NCBI RefSeq assembly: GCF_037042905.1
Contig: NC_087245.1
Coordinates: 1,488,001-1,552,000, forward strand
Origin: Lytechinus pictus
Lineage: Eukaryota
Direction of reading: 5' to 3'
DNA: 64,000 nt
In this document: in pieces, positions 8,474-61,994 of the stretch
Layout of the letters: each line of letters starts with the position of its first letter
Position numbering within the stretch: position 1 is the first letter of the stretch
Translations under genes and position numbers: made by a program
The notes under the pieces: model-generated
What the model was told of the DNA's origin: nothing
The model's database searches: none
What the model saw: only the letters and a program-made list of their open reading frames with translations

Positions 8474-11400
8474 GCAACATTGACTGGCCTCGGGGCGATA
8501 CAACATATATCGCCCAAACTGGATTTACATGTATATCGCCCGAGTCGTAGACGAGGATGATATCAATTTAGTGAGGGCGATATATGTCCTTTTGCCCCAA
8601 GGCCAGTCAATATTACTATTATTAACAAAATCAGACATCTGGAGCAAAAATCGTTAAAATTTAGATATTTTATAGTTTAAGAATGAGAATCTAGTTTGTC
8701 ATGTTGAGCAGACTGGGCCTCTGGACTTTACCATAGTGACGTAATTGACATGACGCGTCCCTGCATGGCCTAGGGACGCAGGATCCAGCGTTGTCTCAAC
8801 TTGATTACCATTATGACGTACAGCACTGCGCGGTTCAAGGACGCGTACAAAAACGCGTAGAATACCCGGATGTTAGCTCTGCTTTATTGCCCGCTACATT
8901 CCCAAGCATGTTCTCATTGACTTTCCTGAGCAGGCAATAAATTGGGCCCGTGGATAAACAATTGGAAATTTATTGACCGGCCATTTGATCCCAGTCTTAA
9001 GCAGGCAACAATGTATCAAAGTTGCCCTGCTCAGATGTCTGATATGATTAATAATAATAATAATAACAATAATGATAGTAATAATGAAAATGATAATGAT
9101 AATGACACATCGGGAGTATGTAGACCAGAAGGCCACCCATCAATGGCTTAAGTCGGCGGGACTAAGAAGTGAAACTGAAGGGCTCATCTATGCTATTCAG
9201 GACCAGGTGGTGAGGACCCGTGCCTACGAAAAGTTTATCCTCAATGAAGACACACTCGACACTTGCAGGATGTGTGGAATAGAGACCGAAACAATCATGC
9301 ATTTGGTATCAGGATGTTCGATTCATGCTGGAACTGAGTACATCACAATACATGACAATATTGCCAAAACTTATCCAATTGGCAACTACTGAAGGATTGT
9401 GGTAAAATGACTTGTGATCACGCTTGGGAACATCAGCCACAAACGATCACCATGATCAATGATAGCACCATATATTGAAACTGTGGCATGCTAACGGATA
9501 GAACCATCAACTGCAGCAAGACGGACATCATCGTCTGAGGCATACTAACGGATAGAACCATCATCATAAACACCATTGAGGTCTCTGTTCCCTATGATAT
9601 CAACATTGCTGTAAAGGAAAGAGACAAACGGCTCAAGTATCAAGACCTAAGGATTGAGATTGAGAGGATGTGAAACGCGGAAAAGGCAGAGGTCACACCA
9701 GACATCATTAGTCACTCAGGAATGGTAAAGAAGAGAATGGAAGCCTGCATAACCAAGATCTCTCCTCATCTTTGGATGTTCGACATTCAGAAGGCAGCTA
9801 TCTTGAGTACAACCAGATTGATAAGAAAGACTCTCGGACATTAGTAGTGTAAAGTTCGTAGTTGCACTTGAAATTACTTGGTGCTTTTGTTAGAGCGAAG
9901 TTATTCAAAGAAAAATGTCATTAAATTTTATGGCGCTATCTTTTTTTCTAGAAAAATTGTGTGAAGCGCTGAGGGGGGGATGTCTCTGTCCTATAGGGTT
10001 TAGCCTTTTCACACTAGCCATAATTTCTTATTTAATAACTGATTTTGATGGAACTGTTTTTAAACTGGTTGTCTCTATGCTGTCGATGTTTGCCCAAGAT
10101 TTCATTCTTTCTTATCAGAATACATAACACTTTTACAGTTGTTTACAATGAGGAATATGTGTCAGTACTCTCCACTGCTTAAGCTGACCCATCTATTGGG
10201 AAGGCTGTTCATCTTTAGGAGATGAATTGATAGATTAATCTGACATTTCTGATTTAGATCTGCAGGTCAACGTGTGATAGAAGAAGAGATCCCACACACC
10301 ATTACTGAGTGGGTTGCTAATGCTTTCTGTCTGTCATCTCAGTATGGAATAGGAGTAGCAGAGACTACATCCATCCGAGCATTCCAACCTTTCTTTCTTT
10401 CCTATACTATTCCATACTCTATCATTCGAGGTGAGAAGGCACCGGTCAAAGTGACTGTCTTCAACTACCTCAGTCAATGCCTCAATGTGAGTACAAGTCA
10501 ACCATGCTTTCATATAATTGTAATTTACCTTTAGCAACAGCAACAAAAAAACATTAGTTTTAGTATAATTGCAAGATCTGTAACAAGCATTACTTAATAA
10601 CAAATATTACAAAAATAGATAAATAGCTTGAAGCATAGTCAAGATGTTGATTTACTTTGTGCAAAGCAAAATTTTACGAGTGTCAGTTTTTATATTTCTT
10701 TCATGGACTTCAATATTCATGTAATAGAATGGACTGATATTTCAGATTTTGGAAAAGTCAAAATTTGTCAATAACTAGTTTCATTACTAGTTTTGTATCA
10801 AGAATGATTTCGATTTTGACTTGTCAAGAAGATTTTGTTTATTTTTGCTCTATAGATCCGACTATCCATGACTGAGTCTTCAAATTTCACAATTGAGACC
10901 CGCCCTGAATCAGAGACTGTAGAGGTTTGTGGTAACTCTGCTGATACTTTGGAATATGAGATCATACCTACAGCTCTTGGTGACATCCCAATCAGAGGTT
11001 AGCAACACTTCTAGGCTTATATCTTCTTCTTATGGCATAAATCTTCTGCTATCTATTCTATGAAGATGATACGATTAATTGTGGTTTAGCCATTGTGCCA
11101 TTGGTGAGGGAGGTGTACCTGGTTAATTTTTGTAATTAGGTACATGTACACGTGAGGGTATCTCGGTCTAGTGGTTAAGACTTTCGTCTTTTAATCTGAC
11201 TTGGGGTTTCATTCCAAGCCGTGGCATATTTTCCTTCAGCAAGAAATTTACCCACATTGTGCTGCACTCAACCCAGCTGAGGTGAATGGGTACCTGGTAG
11301 AAAGAAATTCCTTGAATGCTTCAGCATCTACATGTATATGGCAGCACAGCTAAAGCAGGGGTAATAATAGCAGCGCTTTGTATCCCTTGGATAAAGGCGC

Positions 11401-17400: not shown

Positions 17401-20400
17401 CATGAGTGTATTGATTGTAAGCATGGTGGTTCATTGATTATAAAAAGCAGTTTAATGTTGTGTCAAGGCACCCAATGTGATACCCAGGTGTAAGAATCCT
17501 TTTATTATATTAAAAAGGAAACTAAAAGCCATTCATGACACATCCCTTTCACTTTGGAATACATTGTTCTTAAGTGAACACACACAAACACATCAATGGA
17601 TATTTGAATTCATCTCAGATATGAGCTAAACCATAGACTAGTTTATTGTTTTCTATATTAGCAGCTATATATTTCCAATTTAGGTATGGTCATGTACGTT
17701 TTGTGTGCAAATAAAATATACTTGGTCAAAAAATTGAGAAATGTAACACCTTTCTATAGAACTCTTATTAGTGTGCACATGAGTCATATCACCGAAAATA
17801 GAGTGATTATTTTGAAAAAGTTTCAGTTTTTTAGTTGTACTCCATCTCAGGTTGAATGGACCCATATCTACTACCAAAACGGGAAAGAACTGTTTTTAAT
17901 ATTGAGCTAAATTGAACATTTGATACTAATGTGTTTAAATCTTCAAATTCTTACTAAATTGCAATATTTGCCCAAATATTTGTGAAAAATAGGTGAGCTA
18001 CAATCTGAATGGCAATAATGTGACATGTTTAATTCTCTATTTATCACGTGTGAAAGCATTCATAATTCGATTTTATTTTTGCACTGTAGGCCTATGTTAA
18101 GTATTATCGGTTAAAGGAATGAACTTATAAATTTGTTATTTCTCAGGCTGAAATGATGTACAATGTACCAGTTTCAAGTCCCAATCGTCGCCTCTTTGAC
18201 ATTACCACAATGGTTAGAGATTGGGAGACCAATACTGTCACTGAATCAGGAGCGTGTGGAGATAAGATCATAGACATCTGTATCAGGTAAGCTAGAGATC
18301 AACTCTTCTTCTTAAAGATGAATAAACAACCTTTTAGCTTTTTAAGCAAGGAAATTGATCTGATCATCCATGTGCCGGAGATATATTGTGAGGAATTACT
18401 TAAGTGTGTGTACATCACCTAGATCGTAAGTGAATATATTTTTTCAAGAAATTAAAAGCTTATTAAGGTATAAAGGTAAAACAGTGATGTATATGATGCT
18501 CCATAGAAAACAATACCCTAATCAATAAGAAGATTTCTGAGCAAGGTGCAAATCTAGCTGGATTTAGACAAACTTCCTCGGACTGGCCAACCATTGTGTA
18601 CAAACGTATGGCCTGTGACGTGATTTTGTATCAAATCAGGCCAGATCCACCACTGCTTGGTAAGTCAAGCTGGTTCTCATTAAAATATCAATAATTTCAT
18701 TATTTTTTTAAAGGTATGTTGGGAGTGATAACGAGACTGGAATGGCCACAATGGAGGTCAAGATGGTTTCTGGTTACGTCCCTCATGAACAATCTCTGAA
18801 TGAATTACAGCGTGAATTTGGTCATTTTATCGGCCTCAAGCGCTTTGACAAATACAAGCCAGGAGAACCTCTCTCACTTTACTTTGATAAGGTTAGTATG
18901 GTTAAAACTGCTTTATAAAGCTATCAATTTGCACCATGTCATAAACTGTTTGTGAGTTACACATGATGGGTGACCTGATCTTGTGCTAAATCTCCCTGAC
19001 ATGTTCCTGTCATACATAAAGTCGCACATTACTTATGAACACCTTAACCTGTGTAGAAGAGACAACTTCCTACAAAGTTAGAAACTGGTGTTATTCTCTC
19101 GATCCATAATATGATAAACATCTTACCATTGGAAATTACTATTGTATATTTTACATTGTTCATCACTTTCATGAGAGTAATTGTAATGACAAATTAAGCA
19201 ATGGCTCAAAGGATAAATTTACCATCCAGGAACCGTGATTTAAATAAACTTTTGTTTATGTTGTATTTAGTTCTTATTGGATTGTGAGATAGCCTGTAAA
19301 AAGTGGCTCGAACAGGTATCGTAAATCAAACTCAGATTTTGAGATATTTTATGGCTCGTTCTGAACATTTTTAAAGAAATCTTTTATAGAGGAATTGAAA
19401 GGTCACTTTTGAGTTTTCCAAGAACAAAATGCAGAATGAGCTATCGCGGGAGGCGCGATAGCTCAGTCGGTAGAGCGGTGGATTCGTATTTCGGTGACCC
19501 GGGTTCGATTCCCACTTGGTGCGCTAGTGCCCTTTGGTATAGGCATTAATCCTCAGTACCAGGTCCTTCGGAAAGGACATTAAGCCGTCGGTCCTCTGGT
19601 TGCTTGCTTACAAGCATTAATGCTTTCTTAGCAATCAGATAAAAAATCACCACCAATTTCACCACCAAAAGTCACATGTAATCACATATAGTAACAGAGA
19701 AACCTGTATTGTTTACTTTAATTTTTTGGGGGGACTTATTTCATCAACTTTCCAATGGAATTACCCCTGACCTGTATTATCGATAATAATGAATAATAAT
19801 TAATTCTTCTAATAATTTTCTCGTCATTGTCTCCTCCTTTTGACATCTTTTCTCCTGTTTTATTTTTCTCCTACATGGTCACTACATTGTCTCTTTTCAG
19901 TTTGATAATGTTCTACGCTGCATACCCATTAAACTGAAGCAAGAGATGTTTGTCAAGGATACTAAGGATGCAGTTATCAAAGTCTATGACTATTACAAAC
20001 CAGGTAAGGTCAAAGGTCAAGTAATATATTTAGAAATGAGGTCAAAATCAAAAGATGACCGACATGATGTCTTTTAATTATCTCTGTGGAAAAAGCCTGT
20101 AATTAGACCAAAACTTGTCCATGTGTGCAATTTAACTTTATCTTTTTTTATGGCAGCTTTCATAAATAAATTTGTTATATGACTGTTCTTCACAAGATCT
20201 ATCCTGCAAGATACATGTAACAGGGCTCAAATTAATCCAAGGCTACCAAGGTCATGTATTTGGATCTCGCAGTGTCCACTGGTTGGCTTTATTTTGAACT
20301 TTGCTTGATTTCTACGGTTTGTACTGCAGTATAGAAAAGTAACCGGGGAACATTTCAGGACTTGTCGGATGTCCCATTTGATATGACAGTTACCATAGGA

Positions 20401-25171: not shown

Positions 25172-27161
25172 CATGGGCGGAAATCCCAGGGGGGACGCGT
25201 CCCCCTACCATTTTAGAAAGGAGGGACATAATATCAAATGTCCCCCCTACTATTTGTGGTCTTCTATTATAGAAAAAATTAATAATTCAAAATCGAAATT
25301 ATATACACATGTATCCTCGAATTTCGAAATATATATAAACAGATAGTTTTTGTTAATAACTTGGATAGGAAAAGAAAAGGCATACCGGCCCGACAATTCT
25401 CGAACTTGCATCTAGCCCTATATATGCCAGCCAAAGAGTAATGACATTGATGACATCGATGGCCATTGTCAATTTCATAAGTAATAAAAATGAAAATCGC
25501 CCCTGGATACTTATTTTAGTGCATAGATCATGTAGATGGTAGACGAGAATGTTCCATACCCCGTAAAAACATACCTTTGTTAAACCAATTCATTATCCCT
25601 TTATTCCAAATTTCAATTACTTGGAATATATTTTCATATTTCGCGTATGCAGTAAAAAGAATAGTTTTCATGAGTAATGATTAATCCTTCGCCGTGAATT
25701 TTTACTATGTTTAATCCCCCAAAATTTGTTTTAGATACTCTATTAACGAGACTTTTATATTCAATTTTTACACAAAATTCCTGCCGTGGGAGGGGTCATC
25801 ATAGGTAGATCAAGGGGGTGAAGCGGCGGCCCACCCCCTATTGGCGGCGCAAAATAGGAAGGTGAGGAGAAAATGAAAAAAGATAATGACGAGGAAGAAA
25901 ATTCAATGATGGAAGGGGAGGGAAATAATTGAAAAAAAAAGAAAACTTTCAGGTCATAGTATAAAATTACAAAAATACGCTCTCGCTTTGCATTAATACA
26001 CAGCCATCTCTTTATTTCAACACGTGCTTAATTTTTTTTTTACTTTTTAGATCGAAATATATAAAATCAAATTATTTATTCAGGAAAATATCCATCTTTT
26101 CATAATTTGTAGGTTTAAATCTAAAAATTTAAAAAAAAGCTCGCGCAAAGATTGCTTATTGGGATAAACTGCTTGTTCTTTATTTCAAAAGTGCTTGAAA
26201 GATCCAGTTTTCAGATCTGAATAAAAAAATAATAATTTCGCGCTTCACACTTGCATCAGTAATATGGTTGAGTCAGATACACCCTGTTTATTGCAATAAG
26301 GTGACAGAAGATGACTTTTTTGGTTGGAAAATAAAACAAAATATAGGATACGCTTCGCGCTCACATTAATTAAAATTTAGATAGCTACCATGTCCTTGAT
26401 TTTTAAAATATACTAATAATACAAATTTTTAGGCCGGAAATGACATGACACACACTTCGCGCTCGAATCTAATATTGTCTAGTAAAATTTCTATCCTGTT
26501 CATGATTTGAAAAACTGTTACGATTGTCCAGTTTTTAGGTTGGAAAATACAAACTTTCAGCTCGCGCTTCGCGCCCGCACTAATTGTTTAGATTCCTATC
26601 TTGTTCATAATTAGAAAAAATACTAAGAATGTCCAGTATTTAGGTTGGAAAATCAAAAACTTCAGCTCGCGCTTCGCGCTCGCATTAATTGATTAGTTCC
26701 TATCATGTTCATATTCTTTTTAAGATGCTATGAATGTCCAGTTTTTAGGTTGGAAAATTAAAAAAACTTTCAGCTCGCGCTCGCATTCATTCTTTAGATT
26801 CATATTTCGTTAATTATTAAGTGCTATAAGAATGTCCAGTTTTTAGGTTGGAAATCAAAAACTTTCAGCTCGCGCTTTCCGCTCGCATTAATTGTTTAGA
26901 TTCCTATCCTGTTCATATTCTTTTTAAAGTGTTACGAATGTCTAGTTTTTAGGTTGGAAATCAAAAACTTTCAGCCCGCGCTCGCATTAATGGTTTAGGT
27001 AGGTTCGAATCTAGTTCACGATCACAAAAAATGTTCAGAATGTTCAATTTCCAGGTCACAATTTATGAAATATCAACATATTAGGGCTCGCGCTTCGCGC
27101 TCGCATTATTTATTGAGGCCTTTCATCTTTAGTTAGGATTTAGGAATACCTCCCCTCTTCG

Positions 27162-27219
<58 letters not shown>

Positions 27220-27304
27220 GTGTTTGAGTTAGTAATTCTGTAGAACATAAAACGGAAAACTCAATTGTGTCCCCCCTACCTTCAAGGAGAGATTTCCGCC
27301 CATG
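25172..27304 (+). mobile_element. ~2.1-kb non-autonomous TIR element with internal ~85-90-bp tandem array (left arm of palindrome)
   Basis: TIR CATGGGCGGAAATC...GATTTCCGCCCATG; array of GCTCGCGCTTCGCGCTCGCATT-containing units; (TA)n(TG)n near right end. Confidence 0.8.
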
Positions 27305-27960
27305 CACACAGGTTTATATTGTCTACCCTAATATTTCTCCTTCCTTTTGTTTTCCTTTTATTTTCATTTTCTTCTTTCTCTTTCTTTCTTTCTGTCTTTC
27401 TTTCTTTCTTTTCCTTCCTTCCTTCGTTTCATTTTTTCTTTCTTTTTCTTCTTTCCCTTTCTCAAGTTCCCCTCTCGATCGCCCCTTTTCTTCATTTTTT
27501 TCCGACGGAAGCGCTGATTTACCGGTAGATTAACCGACGGTTTCCAGATTAGTGGGGGTGTCGCCCCCCCCCCCCCCTCATAGCGACGGCCTTAACAGGC
27601 GGCCCTATAGCTGCTTGACGTCCCACCCCAATAAACTGTTAAAAAATGGTATGATCCCCGGATACATGGGCGGAAATCTCTCCTTGAAGGTAGGGGGGGG
27701 GGACACAATAATTTAGTTTTCCGTTTTTATGTTCTACAGAACATCGATCCTGCTTCAGCTGGATCAAAGCTATTGCTTTGATACAGTACACGTATGGGAG
27801 AAAGTATACAAATGTGTATACATGTACAACAGCTTTGGCAATTAACTCTTTTATTTAAATATTGTAAAGAAATGGATGAAGAGAACAATGGTAGGCGTAG
27901 CTTAAATCAAGGTTCCCCAGAGCTATCTACCCTTTGGAAAAATTTGTGATGCCGAAAAAA

Positions 27961-28032
27961 TGTCTCTGCCGGGAATCGAACCCGGGCCCCCAGCTTTGAA
28001 CGCCGGTGCCTTAACCACTAGACCACAGAGAC
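27961..28032 (-). tRNA. tRNA-like gene or pseudogene with anticodon TCA, repeat-borne, tRNA-Glu-like body
   Basis: GTCTCTG TG GTCT AGTGGTTA AGGC A CCGGC GTTCAAA GCTGG GGGC CCGGG TTCGATT CCCGG CAGAGAC A then TTTTTT: all four stems pair; A and B boxes intact; atypical G32. Confidence 0.55.
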
Positions 28033-28372
28033 GGGTTAGTGGCTAGGGCGACCCCGATCCGATTGACCGTCAGATAGACAGATTTTCGATACTATACCAA
28101 TTATAATTTCCTTTGTCGTGTGAAGGTGGGTCAGTTCGAACAATGACAAGCCGCCATGCTTCAGCTGGATCAAAGCTATTGCTTTGATACAGTACACGTA
28201 TGGGAGAAAGTATATATACAAATGTGTAAAGTTATACATGTACAACAGCTTTGGCAACTCTTTTATTTAAATATTGTAAAGAAATGGATGAAGAGAACAA
28301 TGGTAGGCGTAGCTTAAATCAAGGTTCCCCAGAGCTATCTACCCTTTGGAAAAATTGGTGATGCCGAAAAAA

Positions 28373-28444
28373 TGTCTCTGCCGGGAATCGAACCCGGGCC
28401 CCCAGCTATGAACGCCGGTGCCTTAACCACTAGACCACAGAGAC
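28373..28444 (-). tRNA. second copy of the tRNA-like sequence (anticodon TCA, T at position 37)
   Basis: Identical to 27961-28032 except anticodon loop GTTCATA. Confidence 0.5.
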
Positions 28445-28878
28445 GGGTTAGTGGCTAGGGCGACCCCGATCCGATTGACCGTCAGATAGACAGATTTTCG
28501 ATACTATACCAATTATAATTTCCTTTGTCGTGTGAAGGTGGGTTTCGAACAATGACAAGCCGCCATGCTTCAGCTGGATCAAAGCTATATTGCTTTGATA
28601 CAGTACACGTATGGGAGAAAGTATACAAATGTGTAAAGTTATACAGCTTTGGCAACTCTTTTATTTAAATATTGTAAAGAAATGGATGAAGAGAACAATG
28701 GTAGGCGGTTCGATTCCCGGCAGAGACATTTTTTCGGCATCACCAATTTTTCCAAAGGGTAGATAGCTCTGGCCGAACCTTGATTTAAGCTACGCCTACC
28801 ATTGTTCTCTTCATCCATTTCTTTACAATATTTAAATAAAAGAGTTGCCAAAGCTGTTGTACATGTATAACTTTACAC

Positions 28879-28958
<80 letters not shown>

Positions 28959-31579
28959 CGAAGAGGGGAGGTATTCCTAACTAAAAGATGAAAGGCCTCA
29001 ATAAATAATGCGAGCGCGAGCCCAAATATGTTGATATTTCATAAATTGTAACCTGGAAATTGAACATTCTGAACATTTTTTGTGATCATGAACTAGAACC
29101 TAAACCATTAATGCGAGCGCGAAGCGCGAGCTGAAAGTTTTTGATTTTCCAACCTAAAAACTAGACATTCGTAACACTTTTTCAAATCATGAACAGGATA
29201 GGAATTACCTAAAAACAGGACATTTGTAACACTTTTTCAAATCATGAACAGAATAGGAATTCAACCAAATAATAGATGCGAGCGCGGGCTGAAAGTTTTT
29301 TATTTTCCAACGAAGCGCGAGCTGAAGGTTTTTGATTTTCCAACCTAAAAACTGGACTTTCGTAACACTTTTTCAAATCATGAACAGAATATGAATTTAA
29401 CTAAATAATAGATGCGAGCGCGAGCTGAATTTTTTTATATTTTCTAACCTAAATACTGGACATTCATAGCACTTTAAAAAGAATATGAGCAGGATAGGAA
29501 TCTCAACAATTAATGCGAGCATGAAGCGCGAGCTGACAGTTTTTGATTTTCCAACCTAAAAACTGCATGAACATTCATAGCACTTTAAAAAGAATATGAA
29601 CAGGATATGAATGGAAACAATAATGCGAGCGTGAAACGCGAGCTGAACGTTTTTAATTTTCCAACCTACAAACTTGACATTCTTAGCACTTAATAGTGAA
29701 CGGAATAGGAATCTAAACAATGAATGCGAGCGCGAAGCGCGAGCTGAAACGTTTTTTTTTTTCAACCTAAAAACTGGACATTCATGGCACCTTCAAAAGA
29801 ATATGAACAGGACAGGAATCTAATCAATTAACGCGAGCGCGAGCTGAAAGTTTTTGATTTTCCAACCTAAATACTAGACATTCTTAGTCCAGGATAGGAA
29901 TCTTGACAATTAATGAGGGCGCGTAGCGCGAGCTAAAAGTTTGTATTTCCAACCTAAAAACTGGACAATCGTAACACTTTTTCAAATTATGAACAGGATA
30001 GGAATTTTACTAAACAATATTAGATTCGAGCGCGAAGTGTGGCCTAAAAATTGGTATCATTAGCATAAGGACATGTTAGCTATCTAACTAAATTTTGATT
30101 AATGTGAGCGCGAAGCGTATCCTGATTTTTTTTTCCGACCAAAAAAGGCATCTTCTTTTCACCTTTTGGCAATTAAGAAGATAGTATCTGACTCAACCAT
30201 ATTACTGATGCGAGCGCGAAGCGCGAAGTGTTTTTTTTATATTCAGATCTGAAAACTGGATCTTTCAAGCACTTTTAAAATAAAGAACAAGCAGTTTATC
30301 TCAATAAGCAATGCGAGCGCAAAGCGCGAGCTGACTTTCTTTTAAGATTTAAACCTACATATTATGAAAAAGATGGATATCTTCCTAAATAAATGATTTG
30401 ATTTTATATATTTCGATCTAAAAAGTGAAAAAAATTTAAGCACGTTTTGAAATAAAGAGATGGCTGTGTATTAATGCAAAGCGCGAGTGATTTTTCTTAT
30501 TTTTATACTATGACCTGAAAGTTTTATTTTTTCCAGTTATTCCCCTCCCCTCCCCTTCCATCATTTTATTTTCTTCCTCGTCCTATCTTTCTTCTTATTT
30601 TTCTCCTCACCTTCCTATTTTGCGCCGCCAATAGGGGGCGGGCCGCCGCTTCGCCCCTTGATCTACCTATGATGCCCCCTCCCACAGCAGGAATTTTGTG
30701 TAAAAATTGAATATAAAAGTCTCGTTAATAGCCTGGATATTTAAAAACAAACTTGTGCGATTTAAACATAGTTAAAATTCACTGCGAAGGATTAATCATA
30801 ACTCATGAAAACTATTCTTTTTACTGAGTACGCGAACAATGAAAATATTCTTATATTCCAAGTAAATTTGGAATAAAGGGAAATGAATTGGTTTAAGAAA
30901 GGTATGTTTTACGGGGTATGGAACATTCTCGTCTACCATCTATGCACTAAATTTACTTATAAGTATCCAGAGGCGATTTTCTTTTTTCGTCATTTTTATT
31001 AGTTATGAAATTGACAATGGCCATCAATGTCATCACTCTTTGGCTGGCATATAGGGCTAGATGCGAGTTCGAGAATAGTCGGGCCGGTATGCCTTTTCTT
31101 TTCCTATCCAATTTCTTAACAAAAACTATCTGTTTATCTATATTTCGAAATTCGATGATACATGTGTATAATTTCAATTTTGAATTATGTATTTTTTTTT
31201 CCATAATAAAAGACCACAAATAGTAGGGGGGACATTTGATATTATGTCACCCCTTTCCAAAATGGTAGGGGGACGCGTCCGGCCCCCTGGGATTTCCGCC
31301 GAATCGCAAGTTGCAGAATGTAGAGTTACTTCGGATCTGAAAACATATTGTTTACATTTTTATTGGGCGAGGAGAACTAAATCAGGATCCGATATATATC
31401 ATCATTTTCCTGGGGACTCTACTAAAATAAAAAAAAACTGTTTGAGAATCAAGCAACAAATAAATGGAAGGGAAAATATTTCCTTTTTCTGAATGTAACT
31501 ACTTCATGTAAATCACGGAATATTTATGATCTAGAAATGATAACAAGAGAATTCAAATGTTAGAAAATATTTTTCTCGC

Positions 31580-57833: not shown

Positions 57834-59965
57834 TCATCATCATCATCATCATGTTACGAGGTGAGGTAATCCTGTTGACCTCGATCTCTTCATCTGAAAA
57901 TTGCAGTCCATCTCCATACGATGTGTTATTACGTCATAAGTCATAAGAACAAAAACTTGCACACGTGTAGGGTAGAGACGGTTTTGATCATTTGGACTTG
58001 GAGATTGAAACGCTCAGACCACCAAAACTTATCGAGTCTTAATTTGAATACATCGATGGAGCCTGAGTCAAATAACTTCTTGGGGGAGGCTATTCCAGTC
58101 ATTCACTACCCGGTTACTAGTAAAAACGCATTTGCGTATGTCGAGTCTTGATCGTTCTTTAAATATCTTTAACGTATGACCTCGAAGATGTGAATTATAG
58201 GGACAGTGATTTTCCGTTTCAAAAAATTGCCTTTTCCGTTTCAGAAAATCTCAAATTCCGTTTCAGCATGTCAGAAAACGTAAATTCTGTTTCCCCATAG
58301 ACTTTGTACACACGGAAAAGTGACAATTCCGTTTACACATTGAATAGCAAAATCACAACACGTACACTCGCACTGGTCAAAATTTGTATCTGCTACTAGC
58401 CTGTACCAACAACACAATAGAATCTGTTCTAATCGGATCTATGCGGGTGCATAAAATATTTTTACAAACCCATTTAGCATGCATACATCCTCACCTTTCA
58501 CATCATTAGCATTATTTCACGATGAAATGATATTTCATCGATAATTTTGGGGTTTTTTGGACATCGTTATCATCAGTAAACGGCTTTTGCCAATCCGCCA
58601 TCTTGGATTTTAAGACCACGATATCGTGCTGTTACATCTTCTAAGGTAGAGGGCAGCAACACACAACCGTGTAGTTGAACGATATGTGTGCATGTGAAGC
58701 CCAACCCGGCCGGCCGGGCGCCGGGTACGGCTACGGTGCGGGGTACAATCGAGTGTGGTGATGTCGAGTGCAGTCACGACGTGTGAATTGTCATGATAGT
58801 AGCGAAGTGAGATCGTGTTTTCTGGGGTTTTGTGGCCATTTAATATTCTCATTTTGTTGTGATTTCGGAGTAATTTCTGTTGCTATTCTGTGTATTTTTA
58901 GGGAAAATACGTTTTCCGTGATTTTCCGTTTGAAATGCCACTTTCCGTTTCAAAAGGCCCTTTCCGTGAATTCCGTCCGTTTTCCGCGATCGCGGAAAAT
59001 CACTGTCCCTAGAATTAGTTGATGGCAAGAAAAAGTGACTTGAGTCCATCTTGACCATTCCTTTCAGTATTTTAAATACCATAATGGCATCGCCTCTCCT
59101 TCTTCTATAATACAGGGAGTGTAAGTCCAATACTTTTAATCTATCTGAGTAGGGGAGTTCTTTTATCTCCTGCACCATCTTAGTTGCTCTTCTCTGGACT
59201 TTCTCAATTTTATCCGCATCTTCTTTCCATTGAGTGTTCCACAAGATGTTGCCATACTCTAGGTGTGGTCTTACCAATGTCTTAAACAAAATTGGTAGGG
59301 TCCTTGTGTCCAGTTGAGTGAAAGTCCGTCTGATGATACCAAGGAGCTGATAGGCTTTGCTTACTTCCATTGATATATGCTCATGAAATTTGAGTTCCGA
59401 GTCAATCAATACTCCCAGGTCCTTTTCTCTGGTAGATGAGGCAACTTCATCTCCATTCATGTGATATTTATCTTTCTTGTTATTTCTCCCAAAGTGAAGA
59501 ACTGTACACTTATTCTGGTTGAAAGGAAGTTGCCATTTTTCAGCCCACATGGTAAGTTTGGACAGGTCTGCCTGTAAGGCCTTGGATTCTTCATCATTCC
59601 CTACTGCTCTGTACATCTTAGTATCATCCGCAAAGAGTAAGATCCTGGAGTTTATGTCACTAGGCAAATCATTAATAAAAATGACAAATAGGATTGGCCC
59701 GAGGATACTCCCTTGCGGTATACCACTCTTAACATCTGTCCAAGATGATGTCACTCCATTTATAGCCACTCTTTGCTTTCTGCCTTTCAGGAAGGCACTA
59801 ATCCAGGCAAGAAGAGGGTTCTCAATTCCATAAGCTTTCAGCTTCAATAAAAGTCTTTCATGAGGTACTGCATCAAAAGCCTTCTTAAAGTCTAGATATA
59901 AAACATCAATAGGTTGGCTATCGTCTAATATCCTAGTCCATTCTTCAATGACTTTGTTGAGTTGT
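57834..59965 (-). mobile_element. 5'-truncated CR1-type LINE (RT domain to 3' tail), interrupted by a MITE
   Basis: LDFKKAFDAVPH, SGIPQGSILGP, LFADDTK, LVRPHLEY, VQRRATK; continues past the MITE as HLRGHTLKIFK...RVVNDWNSLP; (GAT)n tail at 57834-57852. Confidence 0.9.
58198..59011. mobile_element. 814-bp MITE with 19-bp TIR and 6-bp duplication GAATTA
   Basis: TAGGGACAGTGATTTTCCG at both ends; GAATTA at 58192-58197 and 59012-59017; sub-terminal TTTTCCGT repeats. Confidence 0.9.
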
Positions 59966-61994
59966 GTAGGTAAATTGTTCACTGCTTGTATTAACTCTAG
60001 GCTTTCCAATTATTTGGAATGTGCAGGAATTTTAGGCAATGAGCAGGCAGGGTTTAGAGAAAGTCATAGTACCCTTGATCACATATTTACATTACATGGT
60101 TTGATCGATTTGTATCTACACGATGCGAAGAGAATTTACTGTGCCTTTATTGACTACAGAAAAGCCTTTGACCTTGTTGACAGATCTAGTCTCTGGTCGA
60201 AGTTGATTTCATGTGGTATCAATGGGAAGATTATTAGTGTTGTTTATAATATGTATGAAAATGCTAAATCATGCATAAAGTATGGATATAACATTTCTGA
60301 TTTCTTTACCTGTAATATCGGAGTGCGTCAGGGTGAAAATTTATCTCCTTTGCTCTTTGCAGTTTTTCTTAATGATTTTGAATATTTTGTTAGTCGGTAT
60401 TATAAAGGCTTAAATATGTGCTCTTCTCTAATAAGGGACTACCTGAGCAATGATGATGTGGAAGTTTTCTTACGACTATATGTTTTATTATATGCTGACG
60501 ATACAATAATATTGGCTGAGTCGGCTCAAGAACTTCAGTCTGCTCTGTCGGCTGTTCATCAATATTGTGAGCAGTGGAAACTTTCTGTTAATACAAGCAA
60601 GACTAAAGTTGTGATTTTCTCACGTGGAAAGGTTCGTAAATATCCAGAGTTTTTGTTTGGGGATACTGCTCTTGACGTCGTAGAGGATTATATTTATTTA
60701 GGTACCACTTTTAATTACAATGGCTCCTTCAAGAAAGCTATGAAAAAGCAAGTTAATCAGGCTAGGAGAGCAATGTTTAATCTTAAAAGTAAGGCCAATG
60801 TGTTGAGTTTGCCTTTGGACATTCAATGTGAATTGTTTGATCAGCTGGTGGTACCAATTTTGTTATATGGTAGTGAAATTTGGGGGTTTGGTGATGTAGA
60901 TTGTATTGAAATGTTTCATAAGAAGTTTATAAAAAGCCTCCTTGGACTTAGTCGAGGGTCTGCGAATTGTATGGCATATGGCGAATTGGGAAGAGTCAGT
61001 CTGCTTTATATTATTGAAAAGCGTATGATAAATTTTTGGGCAAGGATTCGTCAAAGTGTAAATGGAAAATCTAAATTGTCAAGTATGATTTATAGGCTTT
61101 TGCGTCAACTTCATGATAGGGACCTTTATAAGTCACCATGGATAGTAAAAGTGAAAAACATTTTGGATAGATGTGGGATGTCTAACCTGTGGAGTGTTGA
61201 GAATATAGTCTTGGACGTTAAGTGGGTTAAGTCAACTGTGAGTCTCAGATTGGATGATATTGCTAAACAGGAATTGAATACTGAAATTAATAGAAACCGT
61301 TTGTGCATGAATTATAGGATATTCAAACAAGATTTTGGGTTTGAGAACTATTTAGTGAAATTAGATTTTGCAGATAGGATTGAACTCTGTAAATATCGTT
61401 GTGGAAATCATAGATTGCCAATTGCTAATGGTCGTTACCTGCCTAATCAAGGTTTGCAAACTTGTACTCTATGTGACTCGCATGAGCCAGGAGACGAGAT
61501 TCATTATGTGTTTAATTGTCCTGCTTTTGAAAGTGAAAGGAAAGCTTTAATTAGAGGGTATTATTTTGTCAGACCAAACGTGATTAAAATGCACAAGTTG
61601 TTTAATATGCGAAATACAAAAGACTTGAAAAATCTGTCAAGATTTTGTAAATTCATTATGTCAAAATTTTAATATCTTAAGTGTAGTTGCTGTCTTGGTT
61701 ACTTTCTTGTATTAGGGCATGATTTCAGATTTTGTTGGATTGCACCTGCACATGCTAAGTGGGGTACCGGTCTCCAGATACTCTCTGGCATGTCGGGAGT
61801 GGGTGGGTTAATTTGTGCCCGTTTCTATTTCTATTACTGCTCTTGTATTGTACATATGTTTATTATCATCATGTTTGATTCTTGTTACCTTGGTATTTTT
61901 TTCTTATGCCTATTATTGCCATTGTTGTAAGTTGTTATATTTCTTCTATGCCCCCAGGAGGGGCCGTCAAAGAAATAAAATCATTGTCATTGTC
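59948..61994 (+). mobile_element. 5'-truncated LINE (CR1/L2-group reverse transcriptase), open 574-codon frame plus 3' UTR and tail
   Basis: TLLSCVGKLF, EQAGFR, FIDYRKAFD, GVRQGENLSPLLF, LLYADD, YLG, C-terminal CxxC...H...C; stop 61672; stem-loop, AATAAA and (CATTGT)n tail at ~61950-61994. Confidence 0.92.

Follow-up and report, generated by a model that had tools for sequence, protein, structure and literature searches.

The window, that is the whole 64,000-nucleotide stretch of Lytechinus pictus DNA analysed here, consists of repeat-rich eukaryotic DNA of about 36% G+C and contains a head-to-tail array on the minus strand at 27751..28707, whose sense is that of the tRNA-like genes it carries. 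The array has a period of 412 and 2.4 copies by TRF and was resolved by TRF and BLAST into unit 1 (27751-28157, 407 bp), unit 2 (28158-28566, 409 bp) and a 5'-truncated partial unit (28567-28707), all on the minus strand. It is followed on the plus strand by an inverted, 5'-truncated copy (28707..28891) that BLAST aligns to unit positions 235 to 52 at 98% identity. The whole amounts to 2.35 head-to-tail units of approximately 410 bp together with this inverted copy, which ends in (TA)n. The inverted copy starts in the T-arm of the tRNA, with a 1-nt microhomology at the junction, and gives way to (TA)37 precisely where the unit has a short TA run of its own; the full tRNA is absent from it and only the last ~20 nt of the tRNA lie inside. 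A first-pass annotation of this DNA had placed a tandem and inverted repeat at 27751..28882. The tandem period, the copies and the inverted copy were all recovered, while the end had to be moved about 9 bases farther, to 28891, inside the (TA)n tract. The two hairpins that it named are present at 27763-27782 and 27890-27931. The former belongs to a stretch of ~60 nt found by sequence and BLAST at the left end only (27751..27810, minus strand), which by analogy may possibly be a Penelope-type ‘tail’ or else a truncation point.

The array sits within a 6.1-kb foldback element (25176..31300), the arms of which (25176-27163 and 28957-31300; 83% over 1901 columns) are long and internally repeated. 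Each arm borders directly on the TA tract containing the insertion, and this tract lies at the foldback centre. Its right part is a (TA)n tract at 28882..28956 (TRF), the likely target, and the left part of the interrupted microsatellite is a (TA)n(TG)n tract at 27164..27225 (sequence, TRF). Between the left microsatellite and the array, and outside the unit, is a separate 506-bp segment (27236..27741) with ~70-bp inverted repeats (88%) at its edges; this segment and the insertion to its right together interrupt the TA tract of the foldback. The 506-bp segment is single copy within the window, and the inner edges of its inverted repeats correspond to a 14-mer of the outer left end of the foldback (25172-25185), pointing outwards. 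As the flanks of the array are themselves (TA)n, a target-site duplication is unreadable, and another element masks the left end.

Both complete units carry a 72-nt tRNA-like gene on the minus strand, copy 1 at 27961..28032 and copy 2 at 28373..28444. ARAGORN labelled each of them ‘SeC (tca)’, a label taken from the anticodon, and against the general tRNA model of Rfam (RF00005; gathering score 29) they score 60.9 and 55.1 bits respectively. The stems are of standard 7/5 form with all 21 of 21 positions paired (19 Watson-Crick and two G-U), the variable loop is 4 nt long, and A and B boxes are present. Copy 1, which has G1:C72 and A73 and an anticodon loop reading G32-U33-UCA-A37-A38, is identical to the majority form of the family; copy 2 differs from it only by U37, a minority or private change. 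Directly after base 73 comes a T6 run resembling a Pol III terminator (27955..27960; 28367-28372 in copy 2), with a T5 run 18 nt beyond it and a conserved trailer (27880..27954, minus strand) that includes the hairpin at 27890-27931 and has one common variant site in 81 nt. In all of this the first-pass annotation was accurate, namely in the position, strand and UCA anticodon of the two genes, the pairing of every stem, the A and B boxes, G32, U37 in copy 2 and the T6 run; the 4-nt variable loop also upholds its view that the gene is not a tRNA-Sec. The remaining tRNA call in the window is a Thr (19453-19524), unrelated to the others except for a 16-nt T-arm match. It forms the tRNA-Thr-like head, called by ARAGORN only and under the Rfam threshold, of an ordinary-looking SINE at 19453-19640 on the plus strand, whose body has no terminator and which in this respect contrasts with the 410-bp unit.

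The 410-bp unit was detected in at least 20 of 24 public runs from 12 studies, with at least half of the sampled words found in 17 of them, and was detectable even in runs of only 5-10 million letters. Contigs of four of the 24 runs (X2, X10, X16 and X19) were aligned to 27880-28290. In X2, 8930 contigs align to one unit, and summed depth reaches 0.7-1.0 million over the tRNA against about 40-110 at single joints; summed depth is not copy number and may be inflated up to approximately thirtyfold by overlapping short contigs. The copy number is here taken as hundreds to over ten thousand. Exact patterns of the two tRNA ends, allowing any anticodon arm between them, had no match in the metagenome, viral or prokaryote collections scanned. 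Head-to-tail joints were seen in other copies in both X2 and X10; strand switches account for four of the best 15 of 47 joints, each in one contig and each at a different place. In X2 at least 37 contigs depart from the unit at 28223 and continue as (TA)(TG)n (among the best 15 of 422 loose-end rows). Taken with the contig number, these joints and microsatellite ends in other copies substantiate the earlier description of the unit as mobile and abundant. X10 comes from a different organism; it shows mostly the common alleles of the first organism at low depth, may represent carry-over, and was excluded as a second species.

The loose ends also bear on the suggestion that the array is a tandem form of a Helenus-type TRIM, with the tRNA inside an LTR and mobilised by Gypsy. 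For Helenus, an internal tRNA-like sequence followed by a T-run, a comparable size range, tandem arrays and suppressor-type tRNA calls are described in the available text of Kojima (2024, PMC10886601), which also states that the Helenus structure is not conserved. Among the best 15 of 422 rows the loose ends of the present unit instead gather at its TA/TG run and at a site of indels, with no LTR-like border among them. Of 15 TGG sites on the two strands, inspection by eye found none that combines a CA end followed by a clean primer-binding site with a purine tract ahead of a TG start, and a relationship of this kind is extremely improbable.

Long contigs of 173, 145 and 138 nt, from X10, X16 and X19 respectively, run through the anticodon, and each is one letter off copy 1, at 27945 and thus beyond the tRNA. 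The family's majority form therefore has UCA with A37, and the anticodon, whose family-wide conservation the first-pass annotation had wanted checked, is no private mutation of this locus. The variant analysis used the best 40 of 55 variant rows; six of these fall inside the tRNA, each at no more than 0.35% in X2 and none in the anticodon loop. A common variant site was defined as one that is 12-95% variant in X2, which drops four near-fixed sites private to the copy in the window and one site at 6.5%. A further eight X2 sites at 5% or above lie outside the best 40 of 55 rows and should be below ~12%, every row listed having a top share of at least 11.7%. By this definition the tRNA has common variants at 0 of 72 sites compared with 20 of 339 elsewhere (p=0.032), and the tRNA plus trailer at 1 of 156 compared with 19 of 255 elsewhere (p=0.0014), several of the 20 sites being in indel-rich, thinly covered places. 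This distribution makes it likely, as had been proposed, that selection acts on the tRNA module. The compensatory changes for which the first-pass annotation had suggested testing the family were not seen in these alignments, the tRNA being nearly invariant. The anticodon itself is without sign of selection, because a 7-nt loop would by chance be free of common variant sites with a probability of 0.58.

A loop capable of suppression has a pyrimidine at 32, U33 and a purine at 37. The present loop has G32, shared by the two copies and the majority form, U33 throughout, and at position 37 an A in copy 1 and a U in copy 2. The presence of UCA with A37 as the majority form in four runs would agree with a working opal suppressor of low efficiency, probably charged with Trp or Gly and used by the host or by a UGA-containing partner element, and a short transcript is predicted to fold as a tRNA (acceptor pairing 1.0, anticodon stem 0.86). 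G1:C72, A73, C35 and A36 match eukaryotic TrpRS elements, whereas U34 misses C34, a major TrpRS determinant, and C5:G68 stands where U5:G68 is given, according to the accessible part of PMC1538984. In-frame UGA codons do occur in some Naiads but are described in the main text of Craig et al. (2021; PMC8557442) as read as Sec through SECIS. The long variable arm of tRNA-Sec is absent here, the invariance of the loop is expected by chance, and hundreds to thousands of active suppressor genes would be expected to be harmful. It is therefore unlikely that the module is a working stop-codon suppressor, and the read-through role that had been entertained for it loses ground on account of G32 and the chance invariance of the loop; the low-efficiency form of the proposal is very unlikely too. 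A real opal suppressor at such a copy number would be very surprising. One repeat is the source of the hundreds to thousands of tRNA calls of ‘SeC/suppressor’ type that score highly in this genome, and such calls should be treated with caution.

Some coverage of the unit may also come from RNA. In X16, which is RNA by guess, 30 of 30 bins are covered and in X19, which is RNA, 15 of 30; the contigs give neither strand, ends nor level, and DNA may be present. The portion without coverage in X19 and the run X20, which has a small share, were left out of the evidence. One diverged copy in X16 (record 9), in which T-stem pairs are broken with no compensation, leaves the unit at 28030 and bears an adaptor-like 23-nt end on the strand opposite to the tRNA. 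We take this end to be a template-switch adaptor, which in this single contig would set an RNA start at 27883 on the opposite strand.

The source of the tRNA module was sought among 130 loci that share its D-loop and T-arm, in which ARAGORN called 118 tRNAs, 60 of them distinct sequences in register; this sample was picked by a pattern drawn from the module and does not comprise the tRNA genes of the host itself. The unit matches none of the 130 loci outside the tRNA. The best match, at 26 of the 45 positions outside the search pattern, is shared by Glu-TTC and Gly-TCC, and the derivation from tRNA-Glu that had been put forward is thus not favoured over one from tRNA-Gly. The anticodon loop is nearer to Gly-TCC (5 of 7 positions), and in the anticodon stem some Glu-TTC come closer (9 of 10). 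An origin of the anticodon by a one-base slip from Glu was considered and found no clear support. At least 19 of the 45 free positions differ from each of the 60 sampled real tRNAs, yet every stem pairs. Such a number of differences with all stems intact does point to long selection on the shape of the tRNA, as judged from the sequences compared.

A further feature lies directly upstream of each tRNA and, together with the Penelope-type geometry of the insertion, goes beyond the first-pass annotation. The 78 bp at 28034..28111 on the plus strand (about 28446-28523 for copy 2) align as a decayed inverted duplicate of the tRNA with its T-run and trailer but without the 19-nt anticodon arm. This stretch, which we term the anti-tRNA arm and which is newly described here, matches the tRNA in 55 of 67 aligned columns with a score of 51, a score reached by none of 2000 shuffles and by one of 123 control tRNA loci. 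At two control loci (L035 and L019) the upstream flank was likewise found to resemble an inverted copy of the locus's own tRNA-like sequence, with scores of 60.5 and 49.5.

The anti-tRNA arm has a marked effect on predicted folding. The unit is predicted to fold at -127.5 kcal/mol on the tRNA strand (z=-4.4) and at -120.7 kcal/mol on the opposite strand (z=-3.5), and the predicted optimal fold of the unit is not a cloverleaf, because the anti-tRNA arm lies directly upstream. With a 5-nt leader the cloverleaf is calculated to be within 1 kcal/mol of the optimum, with an acceptor pairing of 1.0. With leaders of 20 nt or more the predicted pairing of the acceptor and D stems falls to 0.0, with that of the T stem following at 100 nt, and forcing the cloverleaf would cost 9-22 kcal/mol. 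The anticodon hairpin is predicted to stay paired at 0.99-1.0 with longer leaders. In a modelled RNA that runs from tRNA +1 once round the unit, bases 9-25 pair with 396-411 of 412, which would bring the ends next to each other. An RNA that includes the upstream arm is therefore predicted to be a rod that ties up the acceptor, D and T stems and leaves the anticodon hairpin as the one surviving part of the cloverleaf.

These predictions are relevant to whether the cloverleaf of such a retro-element takes the place of a hammerhead, with RNase P (and RNase Z) cutting multimers at the tRNA to give monomers, as the first-pass annotation had considered for concatemers. Retention of the full cloverleaf despite the 19 or more differences at free positions would agree with this, as would a unit size and tandem form like those of hammerhead retrozymes in the portions available of PMC7229834 and of the preprint 10.64898/2026.07.22.740005. 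A tRNA at the 5' end could also fold before the masking arm is made. In long RNA, however, the cloverleaf is predicted to be masked, with acceptor and D-stem pairing lost once the leader reaches 20 nt. Cleavage by RNase Z would, moreover, detach the tRNA from the monomer, and the variants described below favour the rod. Processing of multimers by this route is unlikely.

Twelve variants fall in aligned columns of the anti-tRNA arm, three further arm variants being outside these columns. On the tRNA strand 10 of the 12 preserve a pair or create one, as against 2 of the 12 on the opposite strand. Where the columns match there are six transitions, and each turns the pair into G-U on the tRNA strand (p=0.03); this wobble test is post hoc and modest, and the restriction to X2 variants of at least 5% gives 5 of 5 (p=0.057). 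Two transversions break pairs of the rod. Over the whole unit, pairing is kept by 9 of 16 variants at paired sites on the tRNA strand as against 4 of 17 on the other. This pattern fits selection on the predicted rod of the tRNA-strand RNA. The same variants weigh on a reading in which the repeat is a DNA-level satellite or rolling-circle element, where template switching during replication at (TA)n makes the arrays and inversions, with the tRNA carried along passively and made uniform by a recent burst of amplification. No RNA is needed to form tandem or inverted joints, the arm is predicted to fold as single-stranded DNA as well (-37 kcal/mol), and the repeat is known here from DNA and contigs, an RNA intermediate being putative. 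Homogenisation by amplification accounts less well for common variants that lie in the flanks, with none in the tRNA and one site in the trailer, and G-U-type variants that are asymmetric between strands fit selection on one strand. Helitron-type ends were not seen by eye in the sequence, and a purely DNA-level origin is improbable.

The geometry of the insertion suggests a different relationship. Partial tandems, an adjacent 5'-truncated inverted copy and an extension of 30-40 bp at one end are characteristic of Penelope-like insertions, and the Naiad type has (TA)n as its preferred target and no canonical hammerhead (main text of PMC8557442). At the locus in the window, partial tandems and an adjacent 5'-truncated inverted copy are found at an insertion into (TA)n, in agreement with the (TA)(TG)n loose ends seen in contigs. 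The one-sided extra stretch measures about 60 nt as compared with the 30-40 bp described, and that end adjoins another element. An Rfam scan to E=10 found no ribozyme, and motif searches of the unit found no hammerhead, HDV, twister or pistol; for the hammerhead only one-mismatch look-alikes of the core, lacking helices, were present. Rfam matches of miRNA type at 28641-28859 were discarded as they are far under threshold and reflect the inverted junction. The combination of a partial tandem, an inverted copy, a (TA)n end and no hammerhead leads us to infer a non-autonomous passenger of a Penelope-like element.

The explanation we favour, and regard as reasonably probable by analogy with these elements, is that of an abundant non-coding repeat of ~410 bp with an intact UCA cloverleaf, which would be copied via RNA into (TA)n by the reverse transcriptase/endonuclease of a Penelope-like element, probably of Naiad type, and in which the tRNA would serve the life cycle of the repeat and not translation. 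The A and B boxes would recruit Pol III, and most transcripts would end at T6 to give a short tRNA-like RNA. Read-through, by Pol III or by Pol II, could yield rarer rods of unit length or multimers that escape RNase P/Z and act as templates. The short UA run of the unit may then pair with nicked (TA)n and prime reverse transcription from both target strands, which would give rise to both tandem and inverted copies. The UCA anticodon would likely be an inherited accident, tolerated because the RNA would be poorly charged and decode poorly. Against this explanation, the T6 and T5 runs directly behind the tRNA should stop Pol III before unit-length RNA is made, and paired acceptor and anticodon stems exceed the need of a promoter alone. 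A more specific version, which we offer tentatively and consider somewhat doubtful, is a ribozyme-free retrozyme with a tRNA switch. Here the short Pol III product would be a tRNA, while the unit-length RNA would pair its tRNA with the mirror copy to form a rod whose ends are joined and whose UCA hairpin is exposed. This rod would escape RNase P/Z and be repeatedly copied by a Naiad-type reverse transcriptase into TA repeats.

As to a partner element, four 10-mers of the unit gave one unrelated match only in the portion of the Naiad supplement that could be compared, and no echinoderm appears among the hosts given in the main text (PMC8557442). The window contains two reverse-transcriptase frames on opposite strands at 58852-61669 (RVT_1, E 1.5e-23 and 7.9e-28). 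They were considered as a partner and set aside, being RVT_1 fragments 30 kb off with no tie to the unit. A short frame on the plus strand at 9048-9389, beside a (TAA)n tract, has a Cys/His motif and no Pfam match; this motif is presumably of the kind found in non-LTR retrotransposons.

If the Penelope-type explanation is correct, the passengers of Penelope-like elements include SINE-like ones founded on a tRNA gene in place of a hammerhead. This would bear on how hammerhead-free Naiads handle tandem RNAs and would provide a testable substrate of 410 nt for the transposition cycle. Should the tRNA switch also prove true, the unit would be the first passenger of Penelope type described as carrying a Pol III cassette, and thousands of latent opal tRNA genes would have arisen as a side product. 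No description of the 410-bp family or of a tRNA-bearing Penelope passenger was found in the literature covered, most subscription papers and Repbase/Dfam being outside that coverage.

Several known systems share some of these features, those nearest being the non-autonomous Naiad/Chlamys families, animal retrozymes and Helenus. tRNA-Sec and opal suppressor tRNAs have the UCA anticodon in common with the present genes, which differ from these in their 4-nt variable loop, 7/5 fold and G32 and fall into the general tRNA family of Rfam. tRNA-Sec has a long variable arm and an extended acceptor/T axis, neither of which is seen here. tRNA-derived SINEs share the tRNA-derived A and B boxes and an end in simple repeats some 150 nt past the tRNA. 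A SINE has a 5' tRNA head that is transcribed into a body and tail, whereas here the tRNA is internal with T6 and T5 behind it, and the 410-bp unit also has 185 bp more unit upstream, tandem and inverted insertion and intact stems. Helenus/TRIMp3 and Cassandra likewise have a small-RNA gene within the unit as a likely Pol III promoter, tandem arrays and inflated counts of odd or suppressor tRNAs, in so far as the text of Kojima (2024; PMC10886601) was available; the 410-bp unit differs from them in having no LTR, primer-binding site or purine tract, and in its conserved cloverleaf, inverted copies and microsatellite ends. Animal non-LTR retrozymes are, in the parts accessible of Cervera and de la Pena (2020; PMC7229834) and Li et al. 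(2026; 10.64898/2026.07.22.740005), non-coding, tandem, strongly structured, of similar unit size and proposed to be Penelope-like passengers. Their defining type I hammerhead is absent from the 410-bp unit, which has a tRNA cassette instead. The Naiad and Chlamys Penelope-like elements and their non-autonomous derivatives have in common with the unit partial tandems, an adjacent 5'-truncated inverted copy, possibly a one-sided extension, a (TA)n target, high copy number and the lack of a canonical hammerhead; among Chlamys elements, multimers in head-to-tail order are formed by the non-autonomous families (Craig et al., 2021; PMC8557442, main text). The 410-bp unit has no ORF and carries a tRNA gene with an inverted tRNA duplicate, neither of which is described in that text, where the word ‘tRNA’ occurs once, for tRNA-Sec.
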